Source: Nemertoderma westbladi
Taxonomy: Eukaryota > Animalia > Xenacoelomorpha
Direction of reading: 5' to 3'
DNA: 64,000 nucleotides
NCBI GenBank assembly: GCA_032718475.1
Contig: JAUCBJ010008006.1
Location: 12,835 to 76,834, forward strand
Positions 5,018-36,709 of this stretch are shown in pieces; position 1 is the first letter of the stretch; each line of letters opens with the position of its first letter. Below the pieces are notes generated by a model. It searched no databases. It was not told the origin of the DNA and worked only from the letters and a program-made list of their open reading frames with translations. The translations under genes and the position numbers were made by a program.

Positions 5018-5384
5018 GCCTTACTTGTCTCGCCTATAGAGATCAGCGCAACACAAACTCTACCTAATGTAACAATATAAAAAAATCCATATGTTATGCT
5101 ATTGTACTCCCCGCTGCGTGTTCTATAACAACATAATAATAAAGCAATAAATATATAATATACATTTGTTATTGTAATATTTTGGAAGCCCTTGTGAAGT
5201 ACTGATTAAGATTTACCACACGTGTAAGGTTTGGTTGATTGGCTGAGACGACAGCGCAAAATTATACTGATTAGAGCCGCACTACATCCATCGCAGCCTA
5301 GGAGATACAACCCGGTGCGGTCGAACTATGCGAACTGTGGCTGGTGCTGGGATAGATCATAAATCCCGTAGACGACGAGGAATG

Positions 5385-6551
5385 TGTAAAAGCTTTTGCG
5401 GATATACTCAGTCCCCCTCGCCCGCAAGGTACCGTTATAGGTGTTTTAACGGACATAAAAGTCATTCTTCGATATGTGTGCTTTGGTGGACATGGTAAGG
5501 CAAAAAACCCGCAATACGTAAAATACCCTGGCACAGCTTAGCCTTGATGATTCAGATTACGACATCTAACAGCTGGTTGCTGACATGGAAACGGCCATTG
5601 GACACATGGTTCTTTGTTTAGCTTAACAGCCAATCAGAGCGATTTTTTCTGTCGATGTGGAGCTTTTTGGCAGATCATGCTAAGAGTGTTCAGTCTTACT
5701 GCTTTTTCTTGATACTGTTGTGTTGTTTCTATCTAGGCCAGGAACACCGGCTCTAGAGTCAACTCGTTTTCATACTTTAGAAGAAACATTAGTAGGCTTA
5801 AATTATAGAGCGTATAACTGTTATCTTATCTCAATTCATTCTTACATTATCGGTTCAACATACATTATTATACTGCTGTTTACTGTTGTGTTTTGGTTGA
5901 ATATTATTTGGAGAACATATATAAAGAACCCAAATTTCCCAATTTTCTTGATACACTACAGGTTAGAGAGACGGGTTATATATAGTGATTGCGACTTATA
6001 TTATTGTTGTTTGTAGTGAATTTAATGCTATTTGATAAGCACTACATGAGTCCGTTGCTGTTCTCTTTATATATGATAAAATTCATTGACGGTCGGCAAA
6101 TTAGTGAGCAGTATTGTGTGTTACCGGTAGTGTGCATGATTGTGACTGATAACTAAGCATTTCCTAAAGAATGCGCCTCATACGTGAATCATAAGCCTTA
6201 CCGACTTACCGTTGTGATTAGTATAAGTCATATCTCTGTTTACCTAGATAGAGCGCCACGTCCTAAAGGAACTGTTAATATTTCCCGAAAGTGAATAATA
6301 TTAGTCAGAAATTATTTATTAACGATCAATCGAATAATACAGTAAGCTTACACTGCAATAATAATCTAAGCCCTCAGAATCCAGTCTCCCGGGTATATCC
6401 AGCGGGTGAATGGACGCGCACTTGGCTGGCTTCTGCTAATGTTGTGTTTATTGGTATTAAATATTTGTCAACTTCTAAAGTCTATTGATAAACCAAAAGA
6501 CATATAAATTTTGGCAGGTTAAACTGCTAAAGGTCTTCAAAAGCGCGTACA
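5385..6551 (+). repeat. 5' LTR (1167 bp)
   Basis: Starts TGTAAAAGC, ends GCGCGTACA; matches 22515-23681 with three substitutions seen (5780, 6008, 6423); contains a CCAAT box (AGCCAATCAG, ~5628) and TATATAAA (~5918). Confidence 0.97.
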
Positions 6552-6562
6552 ATAACAGTTAT
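6552..6562 (+). promoter_or_regulatory. Non-tRNA primer-binding-site candidate ATAACAGTTAT
   Basis: Directly follows the 5' LTR; lacks the TGG start of a tRNA PBS; exact reverse complement of LTR 5814-5824 (ATAACTGTTAT). Confidence 0.5.
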
Positions 6563-6618
6563 TGTCTTTATTGCAGTAAGCAATAAAGTTGAAAGTACCG
6601 GTCGACCGGTAAACCTGA

Positions 6619-6745: not shown

Positions 6746-6960
6746 GTATAAGTACATTAATATTATTCGATTTTGATTATTGTATACCGGTAGGTCTTAG
6801 TATTTAATCAGGGACTGCAGCCCTGGTTTTTTATTGAGACTTTACTTATTTCTGTCAGTTTTATTTCCTAGTAAGTTAATATTGAGCTGAAGACATGTAA
6901 GTCTGCTCAGATTGTTCAGATAATTGTAGGCCGGACTGTTGTCGGATTGTTGTTGGGTTT

Positions 6961-7448
6961 GGAGAGATTACGGCGTGTGTAGAGTTTGTCCGATAGAGTG
7001 CCAGTTAGTAAGTTGGGGCAGCCATAGCTGTAAGGTCAATCCCCTCTTAAAGAATAAGTCGTACTACCGTGTTAGAACGCATACTAACTAACCATTTTGG
7101 AATCTGCACATACTGTAGTTTATTTAGGCTTGACAGTATTCTGCCAGCGTTTTGGCCTGTGTTTGTTTGTGTGGTCTGTTCAGGTACCGTAATAGTTATT
7201 GCTCCGATATTTTGTAGGCTGGATTGTTGTCTAGCTATTATTAGGTCTGAAGAGATTGCTGCGTGTGTAGAGTTTGTCTGATAAAGTGCCAGTTAGTAAG
7301 TTGGGGCAGCCATAGCTGTAAGGTCAATCCCCTCTTAAAGAATAAGTCGTACTACCGTGTTAGAACGCATACTAACTAACCATTTCGGAATCTACACATA
7401 CGGTAGTTTATTTAGGCTTGGTGGTAGTCTGCCAGCGTTTGGTTTGTA
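6961..7448. repeat. Direct duplication (288-bp offset) in the retroelement leader
   Basis: CCAGTTAGTAAGTTGGGGCAGCCATAGCTG...ACTAACCATT block starts at 7001 and again at 7289. Confidence 0.85.
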
Positions 7449-8787
7449 TTTTGTTTGAGTATTCTGTACGGGTAGCGTAATATTTATTATTCAGAGTTTA
7501 TGCGATTATTCGCAACATTCATGTCCCCAAGTTTATTCCTACAGTAATTGTGCTTGTTACACATACCGTTATAGTTAAATTAACCCCGGTACTACACGGG
7601 CTGCTTGGTGTAGGAAAAGACTGGCGACTTTGTGCTTCGGTCACTCCAGCAGATGCCGTGGTTCTTTTAACTGTTCAAGTATATTTAACTACTGATTATT
7701 TGTTGTACCAGTACTTGTACCTAATTTAGGGTTTAGTGTACAGTACTTTCCGAAGGTAATTAGTGTGTAGGCAGTATATTTGTGTTGTAAAGTGGTTAAT
7801 AGGCACGTTGGATCTGGTAGTCCGCGGTAATTAACTTCCAGGTAGGAACACTCCGTGATACATAACGTAGTACCTATAGCGATACGGCTGTAGGTCGTCA
7901 GGCGGTGGTATTTTCCTATCTGGACAGTGCAATATATTTACTACTACTTATTATTTTCAAATACCGTAGTACCCTGTCCGTTGTAATAAACAGAATTCTA
8001 ACCCTACGTTAGACTGGTTTGTAGACTTCCTGTAAAATTACCCTAAAATTTCGTACGTAATATTTTTGTTGTGTTTAATTAGAGAATTAATCTCACCCGT
8101 ATCGTAAGTAATTTGTAGTATTAAGTAACTTAGGTAAATTAGAATAATCTGTTTTAGTGTCCCATAAGTAGCACTTCACTGAGAGCGCACAGCTTCTGTG
8201 TAGTGACTTCCCCAGAAATAATAACATTTATTTCAAATATTGACAAAACCCCTTTTAAACGGGTATATATCTATTATAAATCAACTCAAACGATTTATAA
8301 ATAGTAGGCCTGCCATACAACAACTAGGTCTCAATATCAGTTGGACTACTGCTTAAATAGCGGTAATAAAGTAAGTTAAAGTAACCAAGTAACCCTAAAA
8401 TATTCAGAAATTCAATTATTCTAAAATAATTGACATACCGGTATTTACCATAGGCTTATTATATTTTTTTCTATAAATTTGGGCTGAAATCATACCGGTA
8501 CTCTGTAATTAATTCTAGTTCATAATTATACTTATATATACTATAAGTGTAAGCTGTATACCGGTATTCACGATAGGCCTATTATATATTTATATATATT
8601 TGTGCTAAATTTATATATCGGTACTCTGTGACAAAACTAGTTTACAATACTTATATATATTATAAGTGTATACCGGTATTCTAATATACTGCAATAAATT
8701 ACCGGTACTAGGCCAACGGTCATACTGAATTAATAGACTTGCTTTAACTGTAACTATAGCAGTAGACATTCAACTGTATAGCTAAAC

Positions 8788-11295
8788 ATGTCTGACACCC
8801 AGCAAAACCTGTCAGACAGTCTAATCGATACAACCATCTGTGACACAGATAGGAGTGTGGAGCGATTAAGAAAGGAGTTCAGCTCACCTCCTACTGAAAG
8901 AAAGGTCATCCCTCCAGTAGTAGTATCAGACCCTAAGCTAATCCAACACCGTAGGTCTATCATCGGCACTCGGGCCCAAGTCAAACGGAACCAGGAAGCA
9001 GCTGTCCAACAGCAGCAACATCCTAGTCAAGAAACTTGTTCCCAGCGATCAGATAGCTCCAGTAGTTCGGATACTGTAGAGCTGACCCCCGAACGCGGAT
9101 TGCAGATGGCGGCTACAGCCTACTCGGACCCCCTTCTCACCCTTCCTGCCGCAGTACTAACTACTATATTGATTGCGGTGGAAGAACATCAAGCCGATTG
9201 GGCGAGAAGTATGAGAGCGACCCAAGATAATTATGCGGGATACGCCAGGGAAGAATTGATGTCTATTGTCGAGTCACAACGGAACTTTCCCGGACCCGGA
9301 CTCCCGTTAGATTTGTCCGAAGCTACTTGGGAAGATATACACAGGATGGGAGTGGCTAAAGATACGATGGATCCAGCTGTTTGGAAGAGGTCGGCAGCAG
9401 GATATGTGCAGGGATTCTTCGGCTCCTTAGAGCGATTGGAAGAACAATTGTTTCGACAACCCCAAGGACCTCAAGAGCAGGAAGAGCTGCTTTATCAAGT
9501 ACGTGAAAGAACCCTACGCATTAGACTAATCCTATCAGCCTTTGAGGAAACTTCCAAAAGAAGACAGGACACGTCGCTGCAGGTTGCTGTCAAAACTTGG
9601 TTCCAGCGGGTAGGTCTCAAAGTACAAGAAACGGACCAGTGGAAATCCCAGCTGTCTGAGAGACTAACCTATGAAGAACCAACCGATGCCACCCTTTCTC
9701 AAGTGGAAGGCGAAGAGACCGCAGAGAGACCACGAACGAGAGACGCCATCGACATTTATCTGTCCGACTATCAGCGATTCCTAGGAGACGAAGAGTTGAG
9801 GAGACGGCTGTCTGGACTTTCCCCTAATAGTGAAGGAACCCAGCGTGTGTTAGACTCAATCGATGCTGAAATGTTAGCTGCTAACCAAGCTGAATTTGAT
9901 GAAAAACTCCGCCTCACTAGAGTCCAAGAAGAACAAGTAAAGAAAAAACGGATAGAGGACCGAAAGGCAGCTGCAGTAACAGCGGCAATGGCCGAAGTGG
10001 AAGCAGAAAGAAAGGCAGCGGCGGCAGAAGCAGAAGCAGAAAGAAAAGCAGCAAAGGCAGTGGCAGAAGCAGAACGGAGAGCCTCTGAGGAGACTACCCA
10101 ACTGGAGTTGGAAAATCTGCAAGAGACGCAAGACAACATAAATAAACAGTTAACTGCTAGTCACATGCAGATGATGAGAAGATCTACTCCCAAACGCCAG
10201 GGATATACGTCATCGGAGGAAAGCGAAACCACCGATCCTGAAGGCGGAGGAAATAGATCTCGTCTAAGCAGGCGTAGAAAAACATCTTACCGTCACAAAT
10301 TGCCTGATTTGCCCCCAGTTGTGAGAAGGCAACTAGCTAGCACAGACTTAGGTAGAATAGAACCTACAGACCAAATTATTAAGGTCAAAAAACTCCCTAC
10401 TATAGTTGATGAGCCTGAAATAATTAGGCCTGTCGTTACCAAAGTCACTCCTGTGCTAGAGACCCCTGTACTTCCAGAGCTTAACTCTAAGTTCCCTTTA
10501 CACAGTACTACACTGCCTGTACCCGGTAGAACAGTCCATGAGAATATCCCTGTCCTGGAAGCTGAGAGAGAAATCAAAGATTTGTCTCCCGTCGTCCCGC
10601 GTCAGCCCGCTACAATGTTGGCGACTCCCGCTTCGGCGGTCGAGTGGGTAGAGGAGGGACGGCGGGGGATGAATCTCCTGCTCGGACAGATGCAGGAGAC
10701 TGTCCACCAACTTAAGGGAACAGTAAGGGAAGGTAGGGCAGAATTGCAAGAAGTGCAGCAAAGTATCGCACTAGAACGCGACAAATTAGTCAACATACAA
10801 AAGGGCATACCAATACCCCCAGTAACATTGTGTCAACCTGTTAGGTCTGAAGTATTACATGCGCAAGGTGTGGAGCCTACACGCATCTATACTGCTAGTG
10901 AAGTAGAAACTCCTATAGCAAACCCTATTAAGGGTGATTATAAATCTGTTGTTAATGATATTCCCTATAGACCTGATAATGATCCGAGAAATTTATATAC
11001 TGATAATTCGATATTAAATAACACGATGGCCCAAGAAAGCTTTACGCGTCAGATGGCTAGAACAGAAGCCCGCCAAGCGGTCAAAGTGGGAGAGATCGTC
11101 AAATTCAATGGAGATGAGATGAAATGGTTACCTTTCAATGAATATTACAAAGACAGCATACAGAACTCTGTACTATCTAACGGAGAGAAACTTAGGTTCC
11201 TTGGAAGGACCTCCCAAGTTAATGGCGTTAAAGTTTATTGGACATCCAGAAGGATTAAGACAAGTTTGGGATACATTAAACATCAGGTATGGTAA
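8788..11295 (+). pseudogene. gag: BEL gag N-terminal part: long coiled-coil extension, then start of the DUF1759-like capsid region; frameshift near 11200
   Basis: KFNGDEMKWLPFNEYY...EKLRFL motif typical of BEL gag; continues as SLEGPPKLM in another frame. Confidence 0.85.
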
Positions 11296-13036
11296 CAAGG
11301 ATAACATAGCTAAGTATTTGTATGCAAAATTAGTAGCCCCCCGAAACTTCCTTAGTAGCGGGATTATAGAGTTTTCCGATGAGATTCACGAGATCTGTAG
11401 ACAATTGGACTGGTTAGGTAAGTCTCATGAATATCAGAGTTCCATGGTTATTGGAGCCGTAGTCTCTACTTTACCAAAGGGTGGAGTATGTACACGCTGG
11501 GACAAGAAAGTGTTGTACATGAATGAACAACAACGACGAAGCCCTACCATGGCTGATCTCATGTCCTTCTTAGATGGTGAAGTAAAACTACAACTCATCA
11601 AGCAGTCCAGAGAGAAAACATCGGAAAATAAGGTAAGTGAGAAACCCGCTTCTAGGAGAAGAGTAACACCGGTGTGTTACACTGACGACGGCGAAAGCCA
11701 AGCTTCTCAAGAAGAGGACAGCGGGAAAGACACTGATCGATCTTACTATGTTGGCAAAACCTCAAAAGACGTAAGTAAATACAAAGCTCGAACCAACGAT
11801 AGGAGAGAACAGGTTGCCAAGACCCCTCCTCAGTCCCCTAACAGAATGCACGTAAGAAAGCCCGAACAAAGAACGAGAGTGCATCAGGTTACCCAAGGTA
11901 AAGTGAGTAACATAAAACCTAACTGTGCGCTGTGCGACGGTACCCACCGTTTGAGTGCGTGTGCTGAATTTCTAAAGAAATCCCTTGTAGACAGACGTGC
12001 AGTCGTATGGGATAAGCGGTTATGCTATAATTGCCTCAGACCAGGACACCAACGGCGAACCTGTTACTCCGACGTAAAGTGTGCAAAGTGTAGCGCGAAA
12101 CATCACATCTTGTTACACAGTGAGTTCGACCGAGACAACCCGAGTCAGGTAAGTGAGCCCGAACTACATGTCCAATTCAGTGATGTAAACGACACTGATC
12201 AAGAATCTGAGATGGAAGGATTCTATACTGACGAATTCTCCGACGCTAACGAATCCTGTTATCTAATCAATACCGCAGTGTATCGAGCACTTACTTATGA
12301 AAAGGACACCAACAATGAGTTTCCCCCAACTACTTTTGCCAAACAACCATCTTGGAAAGCTCCAACTTCCAACGTAGGAATCAGAGAATTTCCTGTAGTG
12401 CAGGTAAGAGTTCACGGTCCTAACCACAGTTACATAGTGAACGCACTCCTTGACTCCGGCAGCACAGGAACATTCATCGATCAAGAATTAGCCGAAGATA
12501 TCTTTGCTGGACAACCCAAATTCCGGACTAAATTGAATATGTCAGGAATTATGCAGGTTTGGAAATCTACCCTAACGGCAGATTACTATGTAGGTGTGTT
12601 GTCCACCCCCCAGGATAAATTAGGAGTACAAGGTATAAGGTCGGTAAAAATGGTGGCTATAAAGAACTTCGCTACTACTCAGGCAGACCTTTATAATTGG
12701 GACGAGGATGAGAGTATCCAACATCTTAAGATACCTCGATTCCAGACAGATTATCCTGGAGTGCAAATACTCATCGGCCAAAACGCGCATGAGGCGCTCG
12801 AAACATTGGAGAAACGGCCTGCTCAACCGCAGCCACTGCAAACCTATGCGGTTAGAACTAGAGTAGGTTGGTACTTTACTGGCCCTTCCCGCAGGACTCT
12901 CGAAGAGAGAATGCCACAAGAACGAATATACCAAGTAAACGATTGGGAAGTGGAGAGCAGTGAGGTGGACGAACTAGCTGAGGAAACACCACACAAAGAG
13001 CCAAGCAAATCCAGGAAACAACTACACGTTTTTTAA
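11138..13036 (+). pseudogene. gag-pro: BEL gag C-terminus (three zinc knuckles) and aspartic protease
   Basis: CALCDGTHRLSAC, CYNCLRPGHQRRTC, CAKCSAKHHILLH; protease ALLDSGSTGTFI; frameshift near 13000 into GRYEIGLPF...NNRPLAEKR. Confidence 0.93.
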
Positions 13037-13107
13037 AGGACCAAGGTAGATATGAAATCGGCCTACCATTTCGAAAACGAGAACCTAGATTTATAAATAA
13101 CAGACCC

Positions 13108-15006
13108 TTGGCAGAGAAAAGAATCGCTCAATTACATCGACGCCTGACGGCTAATGCTTCAGCTAAAGAAATGTACCAAGCTCAATTGAAGAAATTTATA
13201 ACAAAGGGATACGCGGAGCGAGTACCGGAAGGAACACCAGTGACTGAGAGAACGTATTACTTAACACATCATTACGTTCCCAAACCCGGTAAACCCCACG
13301 AAGTACGAGTCGTATTCGATGGCTCCGCCCTATATATGGGCCAATCCCTCAATTCCGAGTTGTTACCAGGACCCAACTTACTCCAATCTTTGTTGGGAAT
13401 ACTTTTGAGATTAAGACAATATTCCATCGCGTTCGCCTCCGATATAGAAGGAATGTTCTTACAAGTCAAGGCGCTGGATAGAGATAGAGACAGTCTGAGA
13501 TTTCTGTGGTGGCCTGAAGGAGACCTCAACCAGAAACCGGTAGAGTACTGGATGACCATCCAGGCTTTTGGGATCATATCAAACCCTTCCAACGCCTGCT
13601 CCGTGGTGCGAACCACTGCGAATGACAACCGAGACGCCTTCTCAAAAGAGGTGATAGACAACATCAAACGGAATATATACATGGACGACAATTTAAGGTC
13701 CCTTCCATCAGTAGAAGAAGCCATAGATGTCGCAAAAGGAACGGTAGAGTGTTTGAAAAGAGGTGGATTTTGACTGACGAAATTCACCAGCAACTCCCGT
13801 GAGTTTCTGGAAGCGATACCGGTAGAAGACCGAGGAGCGAAAGACCTAGACTTAATAAAGGACAATCTTCCTGAAACCAAGACGCTTGGCTTGAAGTGGG
13901 ACACTGAAAGAGATATCCTGTTTTTTCAGTTAAAACAGCGAGATAATCCAGTTCGGACCAAAAGGATTTGTTTAAGTATCCTGAGCACTTATTTCGACCC
14001 ATTGGGATTTATAAGCCCAGTTATATTGATTGCTCGGAGTTTAGTACAACAAATGTGGCTTGAAAACCACTCATGGGACGATCCGCTTAAGGGAGAATTG
14101 TTAAAGAAATGGATGAAATGGGAAGATTCTCTACCTGCCATCGAGAACTTTATAATTTCCCGTGCATATTTTGGCCATGTTCTTCCTACGTATTCCTATC
14201 AACTCCATGTGTTTGGAGACGCCAGCGACATGGGAATAGGTATAGTAGCATATCTGCGAGTCGAAACCCCGGATGGAATCAAAGTCGCCTTGGTTACCTC
14301 GAAGGCATTGATTAACAACAAGTTAAAGGTTCCTCGAGCGGAGTTAAAGGCGGCTTTATACGCTACAGCCATCGGCCGGAATGTAACGGAACAAATCGAC
14401 TATCCACTGGAGAAAACGGTTTATTGGACCGACGCTTTACTCGTGTTGGAGTATCTAACCAATGAAGTCTGTCAGTTCAGCGTTTTTGTTACTAACAGGG
14501 TAGCTATTATTCTTAGTCGCACAAAGATAGATCAATGGAGACATTGCCCTGGTACGATTAATCCAGCCGATATCGCCTCCAGGGGAGCAACTCCACAGGA
14601 ACTGATCGATACTCCAGATTGGTTGGGTGGACCCGACTTCCTGAGCAAGGAAGAGGATGAATGGCCTCCTCACCTTACTACGGCGGAGATTAGACAAGCC
14701 AAGGGAGCGGAGACAGTCAAACCTAAAACCCGGGCGAGTAAATCGAAGTTATTTAAACCGACTATCGATCTATCTGTATTACATACTTCCGGGAATGATG
14801 CTTCGGATCCACAATCCCTCAACACAAATAAGTCTGTTGTGGAAATTAGAGATAGAGATTGGAAATCTGGAATACCAGACGTCTCGCAAGGAATCTCACC
14901 CATGCTGCAGAGAGCAATGCATCACTACAGTTCCTGGAATCGGCTCTGTAAAGCCGTATTTAAGACGATGTTTTCATCATCACTACTCCAGGACGAAGAC
15001 CACTAG
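13108..15006 (+). pseudogene. pol: BEL reverse transcriptase and RNase H, interrupted by an in-frame TGA at 13771-13773
   Basis: RVVFDGSA, LLPGPNL, SDIEGMFLQV, YMDD; FDPLG; RNase H LHVFGDAS, PRAELKAA, WTDA, NPADIASRG. Confidence 0.95.
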
Positions 15007-16558
15007 TGATACCGCTCCATTGACATCTGCACAAGTTCATGTTATTAAAAATTTACCCAAATATAAGACATCTGACCGTTTTCTAAAGGAGAAAATTAGT
15101 CACCAGGAGCATGAAGAAACCAATAAGCAGATACTGAGACTCCTGCAATGCTATGAGGATTCCGAAAAGTATTTCCTGTTGTTGAGAAATCCGCAGATGC
15201 GCTTAAGGGATCGATTCTCGAGCACAATGATAGATGGGTTAATACGTGTTGGAGGAAGACTCACCAATGCGCCCTTATCCTTTGACACTAAATTCCCCAT
15301 ACTCATTAGAAATCTTGAAGTACAAATCAAGATGATTGTAGATGTTCACAGTAAACTTTATCATGCTGGTAGAGAACGAGTTCTTAGCGAAATTCGAACT
15401 CGCTATTATTTTGATAAACCCCGTAGAGCTCTGAACCAAGTTCTTAGGAACTGCATACCCTGTAGGAAAGCATTCAGTAGGCCTTTAACACAGCGAGAGG
15501 CAGAATTACCTAGGGAACGAGTAAGCTTCTATGAACCACCTTTTACTAATACTGGTGTAGATTTATTTGGCCCTATTGAAGTATATCGTGCTAGGACTAT
15601 AGTCAAGAGATGGTGTGTCATCTTCGTGTGCATGACTTGTAGAGCCATCCATCTCGATATGGTGAACGATCTATCTACCAACAGCTTCGTCTTAAGTTTA
15701 CGACGACAGATTGCTCGCTTCGGGACGAGTAATACCATGAGATCGGATAAGGGAACGAACTTCATTGGTGCCAACAACGAAATACAGGCTTACGTGAAGG
15801 ACTGGAACCAAAGACAGGTGGACGACCAGCTAAGGATAACAGCGTCTAGCTGGACCTTCAACGCCGCCGACGCCCCTTGGTGGGGAGGAAGTTGGGAGAG
15901 ATTAATTCGAAGTGTCAAAACCGCATTTCACTTTATAGTGCCATGCCGCGCGTATCTCACCGACGAACTTTTGCGGACGTTAATGGAGGAAATAGCTGCC
16001 TATCTCAATGAGAGACCGCTTATGCCAGTCTCATCGAGTCCCGATTCCCTGGAAGCGCTAACACCCGCGCACTTCCTACTGAAGAAACCTGTAGCCATGC
16101 TCCCACGATCGGAGATTGCCGACGGAGACGAATACTGCCGTCGAACTTGGCAACTTATGCAGTTGCTATCCCGTCGTTTCGCTGACCATTTCGAGAAACA
16201 TTATCTGCCCACGCTACAACTTCGAACTAAGTGGTTTGCGCAGCAAGAAAACGTCAGCGCCGGAGATATGGTGCTTATTGTAGATCAAGACCTCCCACGT
16301 AAACGGTGGCAGACAGGTCGTATCATCGAGACTCACATCTCGGATGATGGTTTAGTGCGCTCAGTAGAACTTGTCGTCATGCGGCGTAACTTCAAGAAGC
16401 CAGGCATAATCTTTGAGACGCAACAACTCAATCGCCCAGTTGGTCGTTTATGTTTACTGGAAAGAGACAGAGAACTCTCTGGAAACTATGGAAGGCAAGA
16501 CACTCTTCCCACGACCACCTCCCTAATTCCTCAAACATCTAGGGACTCCCCAACGTGA
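14657..16558 (+). pseudogene. int: BEL integrase (homologous frame starts near 14955 after a frameshift)
   Basis: GLIRVGGRL; HHCC (HSKLYHAG...CIPC); GVDLFGP; SDKGTNF; APWWGGSWERLIRSVK; LNERPL; LTPAHFL. Confidence 0.95.
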
Positions 16559-18182
16559 TACGTCTGGATTGGGTGTATGACTATATTGTTTTATCTATTT
16601 TATTATATTTTTATATGCGAACTTTATTATGTACTTTATTATAATCGTTTTTATTCAATTTTATTTAGTAGAATGTTATTTTAGTGATTATTTAGTAGAT
16701 TAGTGCAATATATTAGTGTTTATTACGTACGTAATTACTTATAATATATATTTAGTGCGACGGCGAGAAATAATTTTTTCTCTTTCCTTACTGTCCGTAT
16801 CATATTATAAATACGTGACTACAGTAAGATGAAATGTCCGTACTTATTAAAGTACAATAAAGCCACTACTATATTCAAGTATTATTGGTAGGCAGAGTAT
16901 CAGGAATGCAAAGTTCAGATCCTCGTGTCTCGGCTAAACCAAGCTCTGGGTAGACCTTGGAAACGACTTGCCTCTTCACACTGACATTGCTTCGTGCGAT
17001 ATTGCTCTTCTACCTTATATTAAATAATACATATAGTAGCGTGATGTCCATATAACAGTAGCGTAAAACGCAAATAAATCTGTTAAACCTTTTGACCATC
17101 TGTAATTCTAGTCGATTAAGATATCGCGGCACCCACCGATATACTTGAAAGACAAATTCTAGAATCAGTGGTTAACGTCCCCAGACAAGCTCTGGAATAA
17201 ATCGGTGCCCATCTTAAATATTAATTTAATATTTAGTAAAATCTGTAAAATTCAGATCCTTTAAATTTCTAGTCAATTAAGATATCGCAGCACTTACCGA
17301 TACTCTTAAAGGACAATTGTCATAGAATTAAGGATCCTATGCCCCCAGACCTGCTCTGGAATCAAATTGTGTCAATTTTAACATCAAATAATAAAATTCA
17401 CGGAAATAAATTTAAATTCATATTTTAAATGAATTTCATAAATTGTCATTTTGTGCAATTTATAACATTCCCAAAATTCCATTAATTAATAGATCATGGG
17501 ACCGGAGATTCATCCTATTGAGTGTATTAGAGTGCGAGAATCTCCAACATATAGTCAATAACCGATAAAATTAATAAAATCATACATAAAGAGGATATTG
17601 ACAATTAAAGAATTATTATTAAATAGCATTCCAGATCTGGATGCATGAGAATTACCCTAATTCTACCGCTAGCATTCCATAATGTCACCATAGCAACACC
17701 CACGCTAGAATTAGAAGCAAGTTAAGAGAACAATAGAAAGCTTGTCCCATTGCATAGCATAGAGAATACATAGCACACTGTTAGTATCCAAGGATACACA
17801 GTAATAACGTGACATTCTGGAAGGCACTGACTAACGGACAAATGGCCTGTATGTGTACAATTGGTGACAGTTGTGTGGAATTTATGCGTTTATAGGTGAA
17901 TGTTACTGCTAAAGTATGTTTACAGTAGCTAGTCGCAATCGTAAAAGTAGCCCAACTCTCCTATAGAAAGAACCTAAGTGGATCCAAGCCTTTGGGACGG
18001 ACAGTGGAGTGACTTGTGCCGGTTATCGTTGTCGTGCTGTTGCTACATGTTGGCGTAAACACCGCGACGACGGTACATCGGCGCTGAGAATCCCACTGTC
18101 CGGGGGCAAAGAGAAGTAGGCAGCGACGCCCGCTCGCCTAAATATAAACTTATTTTGATATTAATAAACTCAGATAGCAGAT

Positions 18183-21100
18183 ATGACGGAGTTGATAGAA
18201 GATGATCTTGGTATTAGGGAGCGATATACCCTACCTTTACAAGCATTTGTGGATAGCTTAATACGCGGTGAAGCCGATCCAACCATTACGGAGGACGATG
18301 GTCGTTATATCGAACCGCCGATGTCCCAAGAGCAACTTGCGCATGAATTGGACTATCGAAAATTCACCACTCGCTATACGAATCGTAATGGTACGTATAT
18401 GGACTTCTTAACTACCGGCCATCCTATCGATTTGCATGATACGGACGGTGTAGATACAGAGAGGGAAATGGTTCTATTTAAATATCATACCCAGCGGAGT
18501 CGTAACGATAAACCGAGAATAGATCACGAAAATTCTATTCGTAATAGACTGGAAAGAGAAAACGTTGAAGAACCGGATAAACGCATCGACTTCAACGAAT
18601 ACCTAGAATTTTTGAGAGAAACCTATCTCAACATCGCCAGTCAGCAGAACCTAGAGACTCGATATCCTCAAGGTATACATCATGACCCTGTGGTAGAACT
18701 CAAACGGCTCTATTTCACTATGATGTATCTTACCGCCGATCGTCCACTACCTGTTATCCCGGATAGTTTTGAACAAATGGAAGAATACTGCAAAACTGGA
18801 GAACGATCACCCGCGTTTCCTCTACAGGACGTACGTCTTTGGTATTATTGTGACGAATGCCCTAGACCCAACCAACAAACTGAAAGACATAAACATCCGC
18901 GGAGACGTTGCGCTAAACACAGCTTTACGCGTTACACTTACGGGAGTTTCGAGCGAAACCTGTTCGACGTACCACCTACGATCGCTCGTCTTAAACGATC
19001 ATTGAATAAACCCATGATCAGAGTTCCGGAATACTCGGTCAGGCCTCCTCATTCCCTAGTGAGACCTCAAACTCTTGATCCTAACAGTATCACTGATCCT
19101 CCCGAACTATATTCCCTGTTCAAAGACTTAGTGTTACCCGAACAATTAATCGGTGGTGCTCCGGTAGTGGGTTCGTTAGACATTCGCCCATCCTACTTAG
19201 CCGGATTGGGACGCGGGCAGCTAATATCGCCCTTTGATCCTTACAATCGTCCAGGATTAAACCCGATGCAACCTGCCACGGAAGTCGAGGAGAGCGTTAT
19301 AAGAAACGCTTTAGACGCCATTCGACAGAAAATCGGAAAGGGAACACAAGATTGTTTAGAGAAACGTAAATTACAACAACAAGTCCAATCGGTGAAGGAG
19401 TTAGCCTTGCCACAGTTCGATAGAGAAATCCAAAACCTCGAGGAAGACATCGAGCTTGGACACACGTATTCTCTACAAGAATTTTTAGATGAACGCTTAC
19501 AGAGACAAGCGGAAGAAAATCTACTCGAGGAGAAACACACGAAACTGGAAGAGAGAGAAGAAGCCGCTTTAGCCCAACCTGAAGCTCAAATCCTCATGAC
19601 GGACCTCTACTCTAAAACCGTTCGTCATCCCTCGATGATTCCACATTTCGGAGACAAGCTCTTTGCGACGATACAACCTCAACCGGTTGATATCAGTACA
19701 GGATCGCAAAATCTTATCGCTGACGCCCCTATGTTACAGCGTCCGCCGATCGAGGCCGCTCGTGTTGACGGTATACTCGTTGAACCTCCGGACAATCGAG
19801 CGGATCTTGTCCGTCGTATGGTACACGATGTCAACATACGCGCTAGACCTTTACAGAACTCGTTTTATGGCATTAAAGACCACCCTTATTACGTTAATCT
19901 GACTCAATATTATATGGTAAAACCAGAAGACCCGACACATAATTTAAAGTTTCTACCACTAATAAATCCTCTAGACATTGTCGAACTCGAACAATTGCAG
20001 AAACATCTGGATCAGTTAGTAAAGGTAAACTCATTTAGAAAACCATATAACATTTCTCGAATCGAGAAAGATATAGAACCTCCTTATAATCTCGATGGAT
20101 TTATTAAAACTCGATTAGTCCATTGGAATCTAGATGTATTATTTGAAGAAGAGAAAATACAAAGATATGGAAATGTGGAGACGTATACCACTCGGCACAT
20201 GAAGTATAGTGATCTCCCTGACGCTAACCAATGCGCCACCTTGTGGCATCCAGTAGGGATGACCCTAGAGAACGCCACCAAGGAGTGGAATGAAACTCTT
20301 AATGTTATTGAGATGTATGGAGTTGTCACCTACGATAATGAAGGTAGCGTTCCGGTCGGAGAACTAGGAACTACGCGCATGATCCACATACGCGGATTAG
20401 CTGGTTCTACCCACGTGTTTACTCGAGCGTGTTCCGACGTGATTGATTATTCTTTTGAAACTCTCACCGAAACACAAAAGAATCTCCGACATGGACAATT
20501 CGAACTCGCGCAGCGTTACGTCATTGACACCGAACGCAAACCGGCCATGGGCATCGATGGATCGATGTTACCCCAGCCCGTACTCGAGATGTTGTTCAAC
20601 GAAAGAATCCTTAAAATCGGCTCAGCTGTTTATGGAGATCTCCAAAACAACTTTCGGAATATGGAGAACATTCCATACCCTTTCGTTGATACTCAGCTGA
20701 TTGCTCCCTGGGCAGAAGGTCGAGGTTTCTTCCGCACCATGTATGCTAATACGTCTAGCAACATCACAAAGGTGCAACGAACTTCCATCGGACATCTTGC
20801 CTTTCAGGAATACGGATGGAATTTCAAAGTCGGAAATCCCATTAACTATCAACAAGTATACGGAGACCATTATTCTCGATTATACTTTGATGGACCATTG
20901 ACCGCACCTGGCGCCGTGTATAGCTTCATGAGTGTTCCACTCCGTCCCTCCTTAGCTATATACACGATCTTTGAAAACACCGCACTTGCCGGTTGGCTAG
21001 CCGATGTGTGCAGTCGTACTATACGCGCCCATCCATTAATACTTGGGACCAAACTCGCTAAGCTAGATGAACATAATAAATTCATCCGCTTCGAATGTTT

Positions 21101-22070
21101 CCGACGATTTTTAACCCCGTTCCGCAACGTGGATAGCCAATTTAAAGACCGCGCTTTGACCAAGCTCAGCCTAAGAAACTCAGCTGCAGAGAAGTTGGAT
21201 AGCGCTGGATTCGCCATTTTCCAAGAGATTTGTATATCGAACTTGCACTCCTCTGTTATACAAAGACCTCGAATCCCCACAGGTTATTCTGTCGTGGAAA
21301 TTCAGACAATAGGTCCACCTGAAGAGACAGACACGCCCACCTCGGCTATGCACTTGGAAGACGAACCAATATGTCTAGAATCTGAGGAGATTCAGCCTAT
21401 CGCGCCCCGGAACAGCGACAACGATTACATCATAGAATGGTATCAAGGTCCACAGTGTCTCACTGCGTACGATTATCGCCATGCCAACTATGTTTCTAGA
21501 CAACGTTGTCGGTTATGCGCATCGAGAGACCATGATACGCCCATGGACACCAACGTCCGCTGTTCCTATTTCCAAGAACAACCGACTATGGAAATTTATT
21601 GCGCATATTGCAGACTCAATAACTTGCATATTTTTGCGGTTTGCCCTCAATTTATGACTCAATGTCACCATTGTCAACTAAAGGGACACGCCAGTTTCGA
21701 TTGCCCTTTTAATCGCGATTTGGAAAGCGTAGATGAAATGATCACACTACGTTACATCAGAGCTTGGGAAGCGAACGCTGATTTACATTGTGATTCGCGC
21801 CATCGCTATTATCCTGGACGCGCTTACGAAGGAGTTTATGCGTTCCATCCTTATCTATTCGCTTCTGTCGAACAGAAATCACGCATATCGAGTTACGAAC
21901 TACTGAAGCGCGTCGGAGAATGTATTTCAACCAAGTTCGTACGTAAATTTCTCAGGAGTGTTAATCCTAGCGACCTTCATTCCTATAACTTAATCAATTA
22001 CATCCGTCAGGATCCGGACTATGGAGACTTATTTGTTAACTCACACCCCGAGTTACAGGAAGTATATTGA
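18183..22070 (+). CDS. Retroelement ORF3 (1295 aa): DEDDy-type (WRN/EXD/Mut-7-like) 3'-5' exonuclease domain, C-terminal CCHC zinc knuckles, N-terminal Cys/His motif and coiled coil
   Basis: ExoI VVTYDNEG (D718, E720); ExoII LPQPVLEMLFNERILKIGSAVYGD (D819); FVDTQLIA; SIGHLA..YGWNFK; ExoIII PLRPSLAIYTIFE (Y927, E931); knuckles CAYCRLNNLHIFAVC and CHHCQLKGHASFDC; no signal peptide or transmembrane segment apparent. Confidence 0.8.
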   Translation: MTELIEDDLGIRERYTLPLQAFVDSLIRGEADPTITEDDGRYIEPPMSQEQLAHELDYRKFTTRYTNRNGTYMDFLTTGHPIDLHDTDGVDTEREMVLFKYHTQRSRNDKPRIDHENSIRNRLERENVEEPDKRIDFNEYLEFLRETYLNIASQQNLETRYPQGIHHDPVVELKRLYFTMMYLTADRPLPVIPDSFEQMEEYCKTGERSPAFPLQDVRLWYYCDECPRPNQQTERHKHPRRRCAKHSFTRYTYGSFERNLFDVPPTIARLKRSLNKPMIRVPEYSVRPPHSLVRPQTLDPNSITDPPELYSLFKDLVLPEQLIGGAPVVGSLDIRPSYLAGLGRGQLISPFDPYNRPGLNPMQPATEVEESVIRNALDAIRQKIGKGTQDCLEKRKLQQQVQSVKELALPQFDREIQNLEEDIELGHTYSLQEFLDERLQRQAEENLLEEKHTKLEEREEAALAQPEAQILMTDLYSKTVRHPSMIPHFGDKLFATIQPQPVDISTGSQNLIADAPMLQRPPIEAARVDGILVEPPDNRADLVRRMVHDVNIRARPLQNSFYGIKDHPYYVNLTQYYMVKPEDPTHNLKFLPLINPLDIVELEQLQKHLDQLVKVNSFRKPYNISRIEKDIEPPYNLDGFIKTRLVHWNLDVLFEEEKIQRYGNVETYTTRHMKYSDLPDANQCATLWHPVGMTLENATKEWNETLNVIEMYGVVTYDNEGSVPVGELGTTRMIHIRGLAGSTHVFTRACSDVIDYSFETLTETQKNLRHGQFELAQRYVIDTERKPAMGIDGSMLPQPVLEMLFNERILKIGSAVYGDLQNNFRNMENIPYPFVDTQLIAPWAEGRGFFRTMYANTSSNITKVQRTSIGHLAFQEYGWNFKVGNPINYQQVYGDHYSRLYFDGPLTAPGAVYSFMSVPLRPSLAIYTIFENTALAGWLADVCSRTIRAHPLILGTKLAKLDEHNKFIRFECFRRFLTPFRNVDSQFKDRALTKLSLRNSAAEKLDSAGFAIFQEICISNLHSSVIQRPRIPTGYSVVEIQTIGPPEETDTPTSAMHLEDEPICLESEEIQPIAPRNSDNDYIIEWYQGPQCLTAYDYRHANYVSRQRCRLCASRDHDTPMDTNVRCSYFQEQPTMEIYCAYCRLNNLHIFAVCPQFMTQCHHCQLKGHASFDCPFNRDLESVDEMITLRYIRAWEANADLHCDSRHRYYPGRAYEGVYAFHPYLFASVEQKSRISSYELLKRVGECISTKFVRKFLRSVNPSDLHSYNLINYIRQDPDYGDLFVNSHPELQEVY

Positions 22071-22505
22071 CGGCCTTACGAATACTGAGCCCGCGAACGC
22101 GAGTTGGAAAGAACCATTAAACCCCGGAGGTTTCTAACTGCCTATGGTCCACCCACGGCTCTCGTTCAGACCACTCGTAAAGGACCCGTAAGAGCGGCTG
22201 TCTTAAAACGAGCTCTCAAAGCCGTTAGACCTCTCTCCCCCGACGTTGATGTCAATCAACCAGGTACTTCGACTGGCGGATACACCGACCATAATCCTAC
22301 ACCCTCTGATGCAATCATATTGCACCCTTCACCCAGGAGTTATAGCCCTCCTTGTAAAGTGGCTCGCCCCAAAGAGAAAAAGACTCTGGCTAGCTTTAAA
22401 AAACTGCGTAAACGCCGTCCGCGCAAGAAAGACTAACTGTTTAGAGTATTTACATATATTAGAAACTGTGATTTTTGTATATTTATAAACTTGAATCCCA
22501 TTTTC

Positions 22506-22514
22506 TGGGAGCGG
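22506..22514 (+). promoter_or_regulatory. Polypurine tract
   Basis: TGGGAGCGG immediately before the TGT of the 3' LTR, resembling the short G-rich PPTs of BEL elements. Confidence 0.8.
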
Positions 22515-23681
22515 TGTAAAAGCTTTTGCGGATATACTCAGTCCCCCTCGCCCGCAAGGTACCGTTATAGGTGTTTTAACGGACATAAAAGTCATTCTTC
22601 GATATGTGTGCTTTGGTGGACATGGTAAGGCAAAAAACCCGCAATACGTAAAATACCCTGGCACAGCTTAGCCTTGATGATTCAGATTACGACATCTAAC
22701 AGCTGGTTGCTGACATGGAAACGGCCATTGGACACATGGTTCTTTGTTTAGCTTAACAGCCAATCAGAGCGATTTTTTCTGTCGATGTGGAGCTTTTTGG
22801 CAGATCATGCTAAGAGTGTTCAGTCTTACTGCTTTTTCTTGATACTGTTGTGTTGTTTCTATCTAGGCCAGGAACACCGGCTCTAGAGTCAACTCGTTTT
22901 CATACTTTAAAAGAAACATTAGTAGGCTTAAATTATAGAGCGTATAACTGTTATCTTATCTCAATTCATTCTTACATTATCGGTTCAACATACATTATTA
23001 TACTGCTGTTTACTGTTGTGTTTTGGTTGAATATTATTTGGAGAACATATATAAAGAACCCAAATTTCCCAATTTTCTTGATACACTACAGGTTAGAGAG
23101 ACGGGTTATATATAGTGATTGCGACTTATATTATTGTGGTTTGTAGTGAATTTAATGCTATTTGATAAGCACTACATGAGTCCGTTGCTGTTCTCTTTAT
23201 ATATGATAAAATTCATTGACGGTCGGCAAATTAGTGAGCAGTATTGTGTGTTACCGGTAGTGTGCATGATTGTGACTGATAACTAAGCATTTCCTAAAGA
23301 ATGCGCCTCATACGTGAATCATAAGCCTTACCGACTTACCGTTGTGATTAGTATAAGTCATATCTCTGTTTACCTAGATAGAGCGCCACGTCCTAAAGGA
23401 ACTGTTAATATTTCCCGAAAGTGAATAATATTAGTCAGAAATTATTTATTAACGATCAATCGAATAATACAGTAAGCTTACACTGCAATAATAATCTAAG
23501 CCCTCAGAATCCAGTCTCCCGGGTATATCCAGCGGGTGAATGGACGCGCACTAGGCTGGCTTCTGCTAATGTTGTGTTTATTGGTATTAAATATTTGTCA
23601 ACTTCTAAAGTCTATTGATAAACCAAAAGACATATAAATTTTGGCAGGTTAAACTGCTAAAGGTCTTCAAAAGCGCGTACA
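22515..23681 (+). repeat. 3' LTR (1167 bp)
   Basis: Near-identical to 5385-6551; followed by the TSD GAATG. Confidence 0.97.
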
Positions 23682-24198
23682 GAATGTTTATGGGGTTGTG
23701 GGAGTAGGAAAGGCGATTTTAAGAATATAATTACGTATTATATGAAAAACAAATGGCAAGAGGTCCGTCGGTAAAAAACTGTTATGTTGTTGGCCGGATA
23801 AACAGCATATTTTTATAATAATATTTAATTATTTATATTGCATCTTTCTGAGTTTTTAGTTTCCAAGAAGAGCAACTGACATTTGTCTAATCATTTAACC
23901 ATTTTTATTACCACCTTAAAAAAACCGCTGTCACAAAAAATTTACACGTTATACCGTAACCTATTGTGACTTTTAAACTAAATCAATACAAGTAAGTTTT
24001 ACTTAAAATCAACACAACACATCCAATTTTATTATCTTGTGAAGAATTATAATGATTGAAAACTTTAACAAAATCCAACGATTATGTATTGTAAAACAGC
24101 ACAATATTTTTTAAAATAAATAAATATAAATAAACAGACCTATAAACATGTACTAAAATATTAAATAAATAAATGGATCACGGCTCCAGTTTGGGTGC

Positions 24199-25797
24199 CT
24201 GCAGATGGAACGCCAGGTGCAGGTCGGATCCATACGAGGAGACACTGGCTGCAGATGGAACGCCAGGTGCAGGTCGGATCCATACGTGGGGACATTGGCT
24301 GCAGATGGAACGCCAGGTGCAGGTCGGATCCATACGAGGGGACACTGGCTGCAGATGGAACGCCAGGTACAGGTTGGATCCATACGAGGGGACACTGGCT
24401 GCAGATGGAACGCCAGGTGCAGGTCGGATCCATACGAGGGGGCACTGGCTGCAGATGGAACGCCAGGTGCAGATGGATCCATGCGAGGGGACACTGGCTG
24501 CAGATGGAACGCCAGGTGCAGGTTGGATCCATACGAGGGGACACTGGCTGCAGATGGAACGCCAGGTGCAGGTTGGATCCATACGAGGGGACACTGGCTG
24601 CAGATGGAACGCCAGGTGCAGGTTGGATCCATACGAGGGGACACTGGCTGCAGATGGAACGCCAGGTGCAGGTCGGATCCATACGTGGGGACATTGGCTG
24701 CAGATGGAACGCCAGGTGCAGGTCGGATCCATACGAGGGGACACTGGCTGCAGATGGAACGCCAGGTGCAGGTTGGATCCATACGAGGGGACACTGGCTG
24801 CAGATGGAACGCCAGGTGCAGGTCGGATCCATACGAGGGGACACTGGCTGCAGATGGAACGCCAGGTGCAGGTTGGATCCATGCGAGGGGACACTGGCTG
24901 CAGATGGAACGCCAGGTGCAGGTTGGATCCATACGAGGGTACATTGGCTGCAGATGGAACGCCAGGTGCAGGTCGGATCCATACGAGGGGACATTGGCTG
25001 CAGATGGAACGCCAGGTGCAGGTCGGATCCATACGAGGGGACATTGGCTGCAGATGGAACGCCAGGTGCAGGTCGGATCCATACGAGGGGACACTGCCTG
25101 CGGATGGAACGCCAGGTGCAGGTCGGATCCATGCGAGGGGACACTGGCTGCAGATGGAACGCCAGGTGCAGGTTGGATCCATACGAGGGTACATTGGCTG
25201 CAGATGGAACGCCAGGTGCAGGTCGGATCCATACGAGGGGACATTGGCTGCAGATGGAACGCCAGGTGCAGGTCGGATCCATACGAGGGGACATTGGCTG
25301 CAGATGGAACGCCAGGTGCAGGTCGGATCCATACGAGGGGACACTGCCTGCGGATGGAACGCCAGGTGCAGGTCGGATCCATGCGTGGGGACATTGGCTG
25401 CAGATGGAACGCCAGGTGCAGGTCGGATCCATACGAGGGGACACTGCCTGCGGATGGAACGCCAGGTGCAGGTCGGATCCATGCGAGGGGACATTGGCTG
25501 CAGATGGAACGCCAGGTGCAGGTCGGATCCATGCGAGGGGACATTGGCTGCAGATGGAACGCCAGGTGCAGGTCGGATCCATGCGTGGGGACACTGGAGC
25601 AGATGGAACGCCAGGTGCAGGTCGGATCCATGCGAGGGGACATTGGGTGCAGATGGAACGCCAGGTGCAGGTCGGATCCATACGAGGGGACATTGGCTGC
25701 AGATGGAACGCCAGGTGCAGGTCGGATCCATACGAGGGGACATTGGCTGCAGATGGAACGCCAGGTGCAGGTCGGATCCATACGAGGGGACACTGGA
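24199..25797. repeat. 50-bp satellite, ~32 copies
   Basis: Unit GCAGATGGAACGCCAGGTGCAGGTCGGATCCATACGAGGGGACACTGGCT. Confidence 0.98.
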
Positions 25798-28414: not shown

Positions 28415-29846
28415 AGAGTATCTCCGGGCCAGCCTTAGTATCTCCGGGCCTGAGATAGTATCTCCGGGCCGGACTTAGTATCTCAGGGCCTGAGATAGTA
28501 TCTCCGGGCCGGACTTAGTATCTCAGGGCCTGAGATAGTATCTCCGGGCCGGACTTAGTATCTCAGGGCCTGAGATAGTATCTCCGGGCCGGACTTAGTA
28601 TCTCCGGGCCGGACTTAGTATCTCCGGGCCGGACTTAGTATCTCAGGGCCTGAGATAGTATCTCCGGGCCGGACTTAGTATCTCCGGGCCTGAGATAGTA
28701 TCTCCGGGCCGGACTTAGTATCTCCGGGCCTGAGATAGTATCTCCGGGCCGGACTTAGTATCTCCGGGCCGGACTTAGTATCTCAGGGCCTGAGATAGTA
28801 TCTCCGGGCCGGACTTAGTATCTCCGGGCCTGAGATAGTATCTCCGGGCCGGACTTAGTATCTCCGGGCCGGACTTAGTATCTCCGGGCCGGACTTAGTA
28901 TCTCCGGGCCGGACTTAGTATCTCAGGGCCTGAGATAGTATCTCCGGGCCGGACTTAGTATCTCAGGGCCTGAGATAGTATTTCCGGGCCGGACTTAGTA
29001 TCTCCGGGCCGGTCTTAGTATCTCCGGGCCGGACTTAGTATCTCAGGGCCTGAGATAGTATCTCCGGGCCGGACTTAGTATCTCCGGGCCTGAGATAGTA
29101 TCTCCGGGCCGGACTTAGTATCTCCGGGCCGGAGTTAGTATCTCCGGGCCGGACTTAGTATCTCAGGGCCTGAGATAGTATCTCCGGGCCGGACTTAGTA
29201 TCTCCGGGCCGGACTTAGTATCTCAGGGCCTGAGATAGTATCTCCGGGCCGGACTTAGTATCTCCGGGCCGGACTTAGTATCTCCGGGCCTGAGATAGTA
29301 TCTCCGGGCCGGACTTTATCTCCGGGCCGGAGTTAGTATCTCCGGGCCGGACTTAGTATCTCCGGGCCGGACTTAGTATCTCCGGGCCGGACTTAGTATC
29401 TCCGGGCCGGACTTAGTATCTCAGGGCCTGGGATAGTATCTCCGGGACGGACTTAGTATCTCCGGGCCGGACTTAGTATCTCCGGGCCTGAGATAGTATC
29501 TCCGGGCCGGACTTAGTATCTCAGGGCCTGAGATAGTATCTCCGGGCCGGACTTAGTATCTCAGGGCCTGAGATAGTATCTCCGGGCCGGACTTAGTATC
29601 TCAGGGCCTGAGATAGTATCTCCGGGCCGGACTTAGTATCTCCGGGCCGGACTTAGTATCTCCGGGCCGGACTTAGTATCTCAGGGCCTGAGATAGTATC
29701 TCCGGGCCGGTCCGGGCCGGACTTAGTATCTCCGGGCCGGACTTATTATCTCCGGGCCGGACTTAGTATCTCAGGGCCTGAGATAGTATCTCCGGGCCGG
29801 ACTTAGTATCTCAGGGCCTGAGATAGTATCTCCGGGCCGGACTTAG
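28415..29846. repeat. 20-bp minisatellite with two interleaved variants, ~70 copies
   Basis: AGTATCTCCGGGCCGGACTT and AGTATCTCAGGGCCTGAGAT; inverted copies at ~27996-28040. Confidence 0.97.
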
Positions 29847-36618: not shown

Positions 36619-36709
36619 TGGGGCAAGCCACGAAGTTGGCGGAGCCTTAGCGAATTGACACTGTTAGGGGGTGGGTCAATTTATGCAAATAGTTGTCGTC
36701 GTCGTCGTT

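Follow-up and report, generated by a model that had tools for sequence, protein, structure and literature searches.

The window analysed here is a stretch of 64,000 nucleotides (nt) from Nemertoderma westbladi (Xenacoelomorpha; assembly GCA_032718475.1, contig JAUCBJ010008006.1, positions 12,835 to 76,834 of the forward strand). It contains a BEL/Pao long terminal repeat (LTR) retrotransposon with a third open reading frame (ORF3), located downstream of the integrase and predicted to encode a DEDDy-like exonuclease domain together with zinc knuckles. All coordinates refer to the window, and the features of the element lie on the plus strand. The element spans positions 5385-23681 and measures 18,297 bp including both LTRs. 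The 5' LTR (5385..6551) and the 3' LTR (22515..23681) are each 1167 bp long, have TG...CA ends and differ at three positions (99.7% identity); a short, weak purine tract is located directly upstream of the 3' LTR. The target-site duplication GAATG flanks the element on the left (5380..5384) and, 3' of the 3' LTR, on the right (23682..23686). LTRs with TG...CA ends and a 5-bp target duplication are the structure of BEL/Pao elements. In a Pfam scan, gag-pol matched Peptidase_A17 (E=5e-24), DUF5641 (E=1e-20) and Integrase_H2C2 (E=1e-7); DUF1759 was found in Gag at E=4e-5, marginally below the family cut-off, and the reverse transcriptase piece had no Pfam match to RVT_1; none of the searches brought up a reference BEL sequence. 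Gag, with DUF1759 and three knuckles, is followed by protease, reverse transcriptase, RNase H and integrase in this order. Based on LTRs, duplication, Pfam markers and domain order, the element is assigned to BEL/Pao, a group for which the names Semotivirus and Belpaoviridae are also used. BEL elements are usually 4.2-10 kb long, and few of them carry env (PMC3118150). The present element, which the original prediction called giant, is with 18.3 kb about twice as long, but stays below the 20-kb internal length that one review sets as the bar for giant elements (PMC6431247). Tandem duplications of 38, 288, 123 and approximately 162 bp (6617-6743, 6924-7488, 8435-8670 and 17106-17381) in the 2.2-kb leader and the 1.6-kb spacer contribute to its size.

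The gag-pol region (8788..16558) encodes a long N-terminal Gag extension, DUF1759, three knuckles, protease, reverse transcriptase, an RNase H region, integrase and DUF5641. The Gag extension comprises approximately 770 amino acids (aa; 8788-11190) and has no Pfam match. The reading frame of this region shifts three times (near 11.2, 13.0 and 14.9-15.0 kb) and is interrupted once by a stop codon, at 13771-13773; with these four breaks in gag-pol, the copy in the window is defective. As the LTRs are nearly identical despite so many breaks, recent copying in trans of an already damaged template is suggested. The openness of ORF3 in this single copy is therefore no evidence of selection by itself. 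Counted per kb, ORF3 with its tail has about as many breaks (2 over 4.3 kb) as gag-pol (4 over 7.8 kb).

ORF3 (18183..22070) consists of 1295 codons and lies between the integrase frame (Integrase_H2C2, DUF5641), which ends at 16558, and the 3' LTR, which begins at 22515. In 2000 shuffles of 16560-22515 the longest stop-free run was 251 codons. An AT-rich spacer of 1.6 kb lies upstream, and the ATG is closely preceded by TATA-like and acceptor-like motifs. Beyond the stops at 22068-22070 and 22086-22088 the same frame continues for 115 further codons (22071..22436), a continuation with a chance of about 0.004, and ends at 22436 in a basic tail with 11 Lys or Arg among the last 20 residues, predicted to serve in nuclear localisation or RNA binding. 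Because the same frame runs on past two stops to this tail, ORF3 is probably truncated in the window, and the family protein would have about 1420 aa. Thus, of the intact 1295-aa frame originally described, the openness and the position between integrase and 3' LTR stand, but the stops probably truncate the protein and gag-pol is broken. A signal peptide and a transmembrane anchor were sought in ORF3 by hydropathy and not found: the maximum 19-residue Kyte-Doolittle mean is 1.21, and the N-terminus is acidic. The absence of any hydrophobic segment rules out a retroviral-type env, which bears out the claim that ORF3 occupies the env position without env features.

Parts of ORF3 were found in six of the seven listed sequencing runs, which come from four studies and carry two organism labels. 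In four runs (one from each of the four studies, two labels) 130,813, 35,129, 1,141 and 767 contigs were mapped to the internal region, with coverage of all 30 bins in every run; the run with the best DNA coverage may be the window's own sample, and run X5 is guessed to be RNA. ORF3 pieces reach a divergence of about 13% from the window and are mostly gap-free, for example with 107 differences in 802 nt in run X4 and 42 in 341 nt within the nuclease domain in X5. The 40 variant rows listed, out of 3027 and by the tool's own selection, include 12 in ORF3, 20 in gag-pol and 8 in non-coding sequence. Among the listed sites, 8 of the 12 in ORF3 are synonymous, as compared to an expected fraction of 0.29 (p=0.007), and gag-pol is similar (13 of 20). 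ORF3 is apparently under purifying selection, judged from these sites, and it is a genuine accessory gene, family-wide in these many-copy BEL/Pao elements. Diverged copies in four studies together with the synonymous excess speak against a frame that exists only in this copy and evolves neutrally, the outcome named beforehand as fatal to the original prediction. No contig in the four runs bridges pol and ORF3, so that relatives lacking ORF3 may exist. Among the 15 joints listed, of 100, one leads from 18551 to 21356 and occurs in three of the four runs; it skips 2804 nt, so that the nuclease domain is lost and the knuckles are kept. In run X4 depth drops over the reverse transcriptase region and the ORF3 core relative to the adjacent sequence (contig depth, not copy number), which hints at a non-autonomous derivative.

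The codon usage of ORF3 departs from that of gag-pol (chi2 79 with 41 degrees of freedom, p=3e-4). The CpG observed/expected ratio of ORF3 (18183-22067) is 1.29 versus 0.70-0.98 in gag-pol, and its arginine codons favour CGN (71 of 98 versus 100 of 204). This difference in codon usage, CpG richness and CGN preference suggests that ORF3 was acquired separately from gag-pol.

The predicted DEDDy-like exonuclease domain comprises aa 698-949 (20274..21029). The motifs on which the original prediction was built are all found in order: VVTYDNEG at aa 714 (nt 20322), LPQPV...YGD at aa 796, FVDTQ at aa 834, SIGHLA at aa 868, YGWNFK at aa 877 and IYTIFE at aa 926. The candidate catalytic residues are D718 (nt 20334), E720 (20340), D819 (20637), Y927 (20961) and E931 (20973). 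A single match to ORF3, the protein P0001, was found among 1.84 billion representatives (E=2.4e-7, 29% identity). P0001 has the same order as ORF3, namely the DxE motif, the ExoII Asp, DTQ, YxxxEN, three knuckles and a basic end, and it retains D718, E720, D819 and Y927 at less than 30% identity. The ExoI motif D-x-E is present as D718/E720, invariant in alignment A7 (35 mostly Pol I-type rows plus P0001, picked after several trials) and placed on model strand 714-725. In a matrix scan for ExoI, aa 702-721 ranked first among all windows of ORF3, and DVE ranked first in P0001. The ExoII Asp, D819 within K-x-G-x5-D, is supported by P0001, the RNase D model TIGR01388, the profile described below and the A7 alignment. 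At ExoIII the sequence reads Y927-x3-E931, so the last acidic residue is Glu instead of Asp, as had been noticed at the outset, and it is Glu in P0001 as well. For this reason the domain is classed as DEDDy-like with a D-E-D-E motif and not as a canonical DEDDy enzyme. It also contains long insertions.

Further evidence for the fold comes from remote homology. In the ESM Atlas, PF01612 (DNA_pol_A_exo1) was assigned to 24 of the 30 matches of aa 680-990, with a best score of 0.93; shuffled proteins attain 0.9 in 4-10% of trials. The NCBIfam model TIGR01388 matched the ExoII region weakly (E=0.0014). Of 424 metagenome candidates for the pattern shared by ORF3 and P0001, two were confirmed, and both encode WRN-like domains; one of these loci, L002, carries PF01612 and matches WRN structures. 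The two loci (L001:644-1088 and L002:3145-3974) are split, apparently intron-containing WRN-like exonuclease genes on metagenome contigs, probably fungal, with an ExoII motif nearly identical to that of ORF3. Together with P0001, the ESM Atlas matches, TIGR01388 and these loci make up four concordant lines of evidence that owe nothing to the choice of alignment. A profile was built from 143 loci selected by the ExoII/ExoIII pattern; four without a motif-bearing frame were dropped and 139 kept, of which at least one (L064) looks like a chance match. This profile gave 11.2 bits for ORF3 and 21.0 for P0001, with 200 ORF3 shuffles at or below 0.0, and hhalign returned 75% and 93%, respectively, versus at most 2.6% for 60 shuffles. 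Word-based homolog searches confirmed none of 2715 and none of 1423 candidates, and among 7692 recovered P0001 itself only; neither these searches nor that of the 1.84 billion representatives brought up a bdelloid DEDDy ORF. Searches of viral contigs gave no loci related to ORF3, the integrase, L002, alignment A4 or P0001, those of prokaryote genomes gave no related loci, and tblastn on phages and plasmids returned nothing useful. Without an alignment, AlphaFold gave no confident fold for the single domain sequence (predicted local distance difference test, pLDDT, 29). The A7-guided model gave structural matches, with Z from 11.8 to 9.8, to Klenow, diDNase, RNase D, Nibbler, WRN, EXD1, Rrp6 and Egalitarian, at a root mean square deviation of 3.2-4.0 over 154-171 residues and 9-18% identity. 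The model is compatible with a DEDDy fold, without proving it or ranking the subfamilies. Since the top Z values differ by about 1-2 units at most and the model was guided by an alignment, the closest subfamily is not separable; the DEDDy-like fold originally proposed is retained, but these data do not place ORF3 closer to the Mut-7, EXD and WRN types named with it than to RNase D, Pol I or Egalitarian.

Several results weigh against reading this domain as an active nuclease. Pfam recognised no family in ORF3 or in its nuclease part, and the PDB sequence search gave no significant match to the domain, nor to profiles A3 and A4 (EXD2, E=1.3). PHROGs likewise gave no significant recognition, and the fold assignment accordingly rests on remote evidence. 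The ESM Atlas matches share 158-167 features, fewer than the 170 typical of matches within a family, and the test with the 139-domain profile is partly circular, as its members were picked by an ExoII-type motif. The A7-guided model is of moderate quality (pLDDT 56, predicted template modelling score 0.56) and not independent, being guided by a chosen DEDDy alignment; Foldseek found no match to the domain model at E<=0.001, the top rows being DEDD nucleases. At the third motif the Y-x3-D signature is absent; the ExoIII candidate scores weakly, ranking second in ORF3 and not reaching the first four places in P0001. For ExoI, hhalign, pairwise alignment and MAFFT with WRN-like bacterial rows chose a rival register at aa 753-765, in which the DxE spacing is missing. 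The nuclease domain holds 3 of the 12 listed ORF3 variant rows. MAFFT alignments A1-A3, A5 and A6 put the N-terminal strands in the rival register, and MAFFT with Pol I-type rows selects D718/E720. The latter register is favoured because helix, Gly, strand and DxE all align with P0001. The ESM Atlas, TIGR01388 and P0001 agree on a DEDD fold, so that a failure of all searches to find one, the other outcome that had been taken as fatal, did not occur. Taken together, these comparisons make it very probable that aa 698-949 adopt a DEDDy-like exonuclease fold of the DnaQ/RNase D/WRN/Nibbler type. Catalysis by D718, E720 and D819, with Y927 and E931 at the ExoIII position, is reasonably probable from the motifs.

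Outside the nuclease domain, aa 1-680 of ORF3 match no family in Pfam, NCBIfam or PHROGs, and alignment of the N-terminal part with Gag is at chance level (831 of 1000 shuffles). A coiled-coil-like stretch was judged by eye at about aa 390-470. A Cys/His cluster at 18849-18926, with CDEC at aa 223 and more His and Cys up to about aa 246, is a possible extra zinc site. Three Cys/His knuckles (aa 1109-1174) are located at 21507..21704, where they had been predicted. Canonical CCHC spacing is found in the third only (CX2CX4HX4C); the first reads CX2CX4HX9C and the second CX2CX5HX4C. They align to the knuckles of P0001 (score 76.5, 0 of 1000 shuffles), and the region C-terminal to them aligns at chance level (914 of 1000). 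Their resemblance to the knuckles of the element's own Gag is weak (27 of 1000 shuffles). The ESM Atlas score for zf-CCHC of 0.77 is a lead only, and the knuckle search returned Air2 at a non-significant E=0.3.

The primer-binding-site position directly 3' of the 5' LTR (6552..6562) lacks the TGG start of a tRNA-type site. These 11 nt are the exact reverse complement of 5814..5824 inside the LTR, a candidate self-primer. The self-primer sequence occurs in 33 of 20000 dinucleotide shuffles of the LTR, and the duplex is present in the unconstrained minimum free energy fold of 5814-6620. Positions 6552-6562 are also a near-palindrome and overlap small hairpins at about 6550-6564 and 6566-6588. 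A leader segment (6568..6577) forms 10 Watson-Crick pairs with LTR 6352-6361, a possible but weak flanking duplex, the strength of which was equalled in 178 of 5000 shuffles; none is clear on the U5 side. A primer site complementary to sequence inside the LTR is the Tf1-type arrangement, and the element is thus a candidate, by sequence and by analogy, for tRNA-independent, Tf1-like self-priming in BEL/Pao. Tf1 and sushi elements, which self-prime with Gag, protease, reverse transcriptase and integrase only (PMC4600332, PMC10085805), share the 11-nt site beside the 5' LTR, but are Ty3/gypsy chromoviruses, and their flanking 'pretzel' duplexes are not clearly present here. A good TATA box at 5918, better than that for a start at 5814, would place the transcription start downstream of the primer and argues for a later start.

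Two long hairpins were predicted in the sense RNA. The one inside gag (10579..10675) is the strongest of 606 folding windows, with z of -5.6 on the plus and -2.5 on the minus strand. The second strongest (17998..18102), an imperfect hairpin of about 45 bp with 8 G-U pairs, is located about 80 nt before ORF3 and has a z of -5.6 and -60.9 kcal/mol on the plus strand versus -41 on the minus strand; it might give rise to small RNAs, act in translation or serve as a localisation signal. Rfam had no match for the hairpins, and the search for tRNA genes found none. A sigma-70 promoter scan was at chance level and is not relevant to a eukaryote host.

Large minisatellite arrays flank the element on both sides; arrays were found at 1218-5017 (59-bp unit), 24199-25796 (50 bp), 28417-29846 (20 bp), 33923-38890 (24 bp) and 54502-64000 (22-67 bp). 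On the minus strand, an ORF of 966 aa (30386-33286) with weak matches to C2H2 zinc fingers is probably a host exon. A non-LTR retrotransposon ORF on the same strand (47562-50573) encodes an endonuclease and RVT_1 (Pfam) and contains an in-frame Pro/Ser/Gly repeat that interrupts it at about 49150-49570.

Counteraction of silencing, primer processing and proofreading were the functions originally suggested. The reading preferred here, with a probability of roughly 0.4, is that ORF3 acts in trans as an RNA 3'-exonuclease which counters small-RNA silencing or nuclear RNA surveillance. The protein would be expressed as a separate product, as the AT-rich spacer and the TATA-like and acceptor-like motifs suggest. 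It would be a metal-dependent 3'-5' exoribonuclease with zinc knuckles that hold single-stranded RNA; the knuckles and the basic tail point to RNA as the substrate. In trans it may trim or destroy the RNAs by which the host silences the element, and its targets could be unmethylated precursors of PIWI-interacting RNAs (piRNAs), small interfering RNAs or substrates of nuclear RNA surveillance. Conserved acidic residues are, however, no proof of catalysis, because in Egalitarian the putative catalytic residues are kept and yet dispensable (PMC13186709). ORF3 could instead be a non-catalytic RNA-binding adaptor like Egalitarian or EXD1, whose fold, knuckles and coiled coil bind the hairpins of the element's RNA and route this RNA for export, transport or packaging, so that ORF3 assumes the spreading role of env. 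The replacement of the ExoIII Asp by Glu in both ORF3 and P0001, the long insertions and the two sense-strand hairpins fit such an adaptor, as does Egalitarian itself: of all proteins in the structure list it is the most similar in sequence (18% identity, Z 9.8), and its catalytic residues are not used when it binds stem-loop signals (PMC13186709). The retention of D718, E720, D819 and Y927 in the distant P0001 speaks against it; moreover, the Z of Egalitarian is lower than those of Klenow, RNase D and Nibbler, and no LOTUS-type domain was seen in the family searches of aa 1-680. An adaptor is considered possible but doubtful. A nuclease that trims the element's own RNA, either the 3' overhang of the self-primer or the 3' end of the genomic RNA, is somewhat less probable still. 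It would suit the exact 11-nt pairing in place of a tRNA-type site, the duplex in the unconstrained fold and the ability of DEDDy enzymes to trim structured RNA ends (PMC5408684), and the knuckles could carry the protein into the particle. Tf1 and sushi elements, on the other hand, need no such enzyme for self-priming, and the TATA box at 5918 would leave the primer outside the transcript.

ORF3 might also be a passenger, a captured host or foreign fragment of no benefit to the element. A separate origin of ORF3, suggested by the codon usage, its break density, close to that of gag-pol, and the joint that removes most of it in three of four runs would all be expected of a passenger, but the synonymous excess, the diverged gap-free copies across several studies, a frame of 1295 codons without introns and a distant homolog of the same architecture make this improbable. 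By analogy to the nidovirus ExoN, ORF3 might proofread reverse transcription of an oversized genome. The element is large, and the Klenow proofreading domain heads the structural comparison (Z 11.8); this first place, however, follows from the Pol I sequences used in building the model, and the knuckles and basic tail indicate RNA binding. We know of no LTR element with a reverse transcriptase coupled to a separate exonuclease, which also counts against proofreading and leaves it very unlikely. Burro elements, which attain 25-30 kb, have no exonuclease listed in the available text of the review (PMC6431247).

DEDDy ORF3s with the motif DEED are carried by the gypsy-like elements Juno and Vesta and by Athena/Terminon elements of bdelloid rotifers (PMC5408684, Rodriguez et al. 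2017), as the original prediction had stated and as a review (PMC6431247) and an opinion piece (PMC6338049) repeat. Their invariant residues are intact, and a role in 3'-end processing or silencing was proposed (PMC5408684). As in bdelloids, the ORF3 described here is a separate frame after pol that replaces env, has a DEDDy-like fold with one Asp-to-Glu change and lacks a transmembrane segment. The two differ, compared by description only, in the host element (gypsy-like or Athena/Terminon versus BEL/Pao) and in the motif (DEED versus D-E-D-E). Here the protein has 1295 or more aa, with a 680-aa N-terminal part that matches no family, a coiled-coil-like stretch, three knuckles and a basic tail; the bdelloid ORFs are said to lack coiled coils (PMC5408684). 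With cellular DEDDy proteins (RNase D, Rrp6, WRN, Nibbler/Mut-7, EXD1/EXD2, Pol I; PF01612) it shares the predicted fold and the ExoI and ExoII motifs, but is 9-18% identical, has Glu as fourth acid and contains long insertions and the knuckle fusion. The exonuclease-homology domain of Egalitarian is of the same fold class and likewise belongs to an RNA-binding protein with extra RNA-binding modules; ORF3 has knuckles instead of detected LOTUS-like domains and is transposon-encoded. The element as a whole agrees with BEL/Pao in LTRs, 5-bp duplication, Gag with three knuckles, domain order, Peptidase_A17 and DUF5641, and departs from it in its length, in a third ORF that is not env and in having no tRNA-type primer site. 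Literature searches, conducted outside Repbase, subscription journals and supplements, returned no exonuclease ORF in a BEL/Pao element, and the word exonuclease occurs zero times in the main text, as available, of PMC3118150, PMC8220671, PMC8556966 and PMC6238403. The type of cargo is thus known from another superfamily, while no published account was found of its BEL/Pao host, the knuckle fusion or the altered motif.

In a more speculative form, held only tentatively, ORF3 and P0001 would represent an undescribed retroelement-borne family that combines an active D-E-D-E exonuclease, knuckles of the Air or nucleocapsid type and a nuclear-targeting tail. Such proteins would mimic the host's Rrp6-plus-knuckle machinery (Air/ZCCHC, TRAMP), suppress piRNA or exosome silencing enzymatically and enable BEL amplification. 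If this is true, ORF3 would be the first gene found by the searches through which an animal LTR retrotransposon opposes silencing enzymatically, and it would bear on how retrotransposons counter control by piRNAs and RNA surveillance. Residues 698-949 are a small domain suited to direct assay of activity and substrate, and the self-complementary primer site is a testable case of tRNA-independent priming in BEL/Pao. That DEDDy cargo occurs in a second superfamily, where it appears to be under purifying selection and is joined to knuckles, suggests that the same activity has been selected for more than once.

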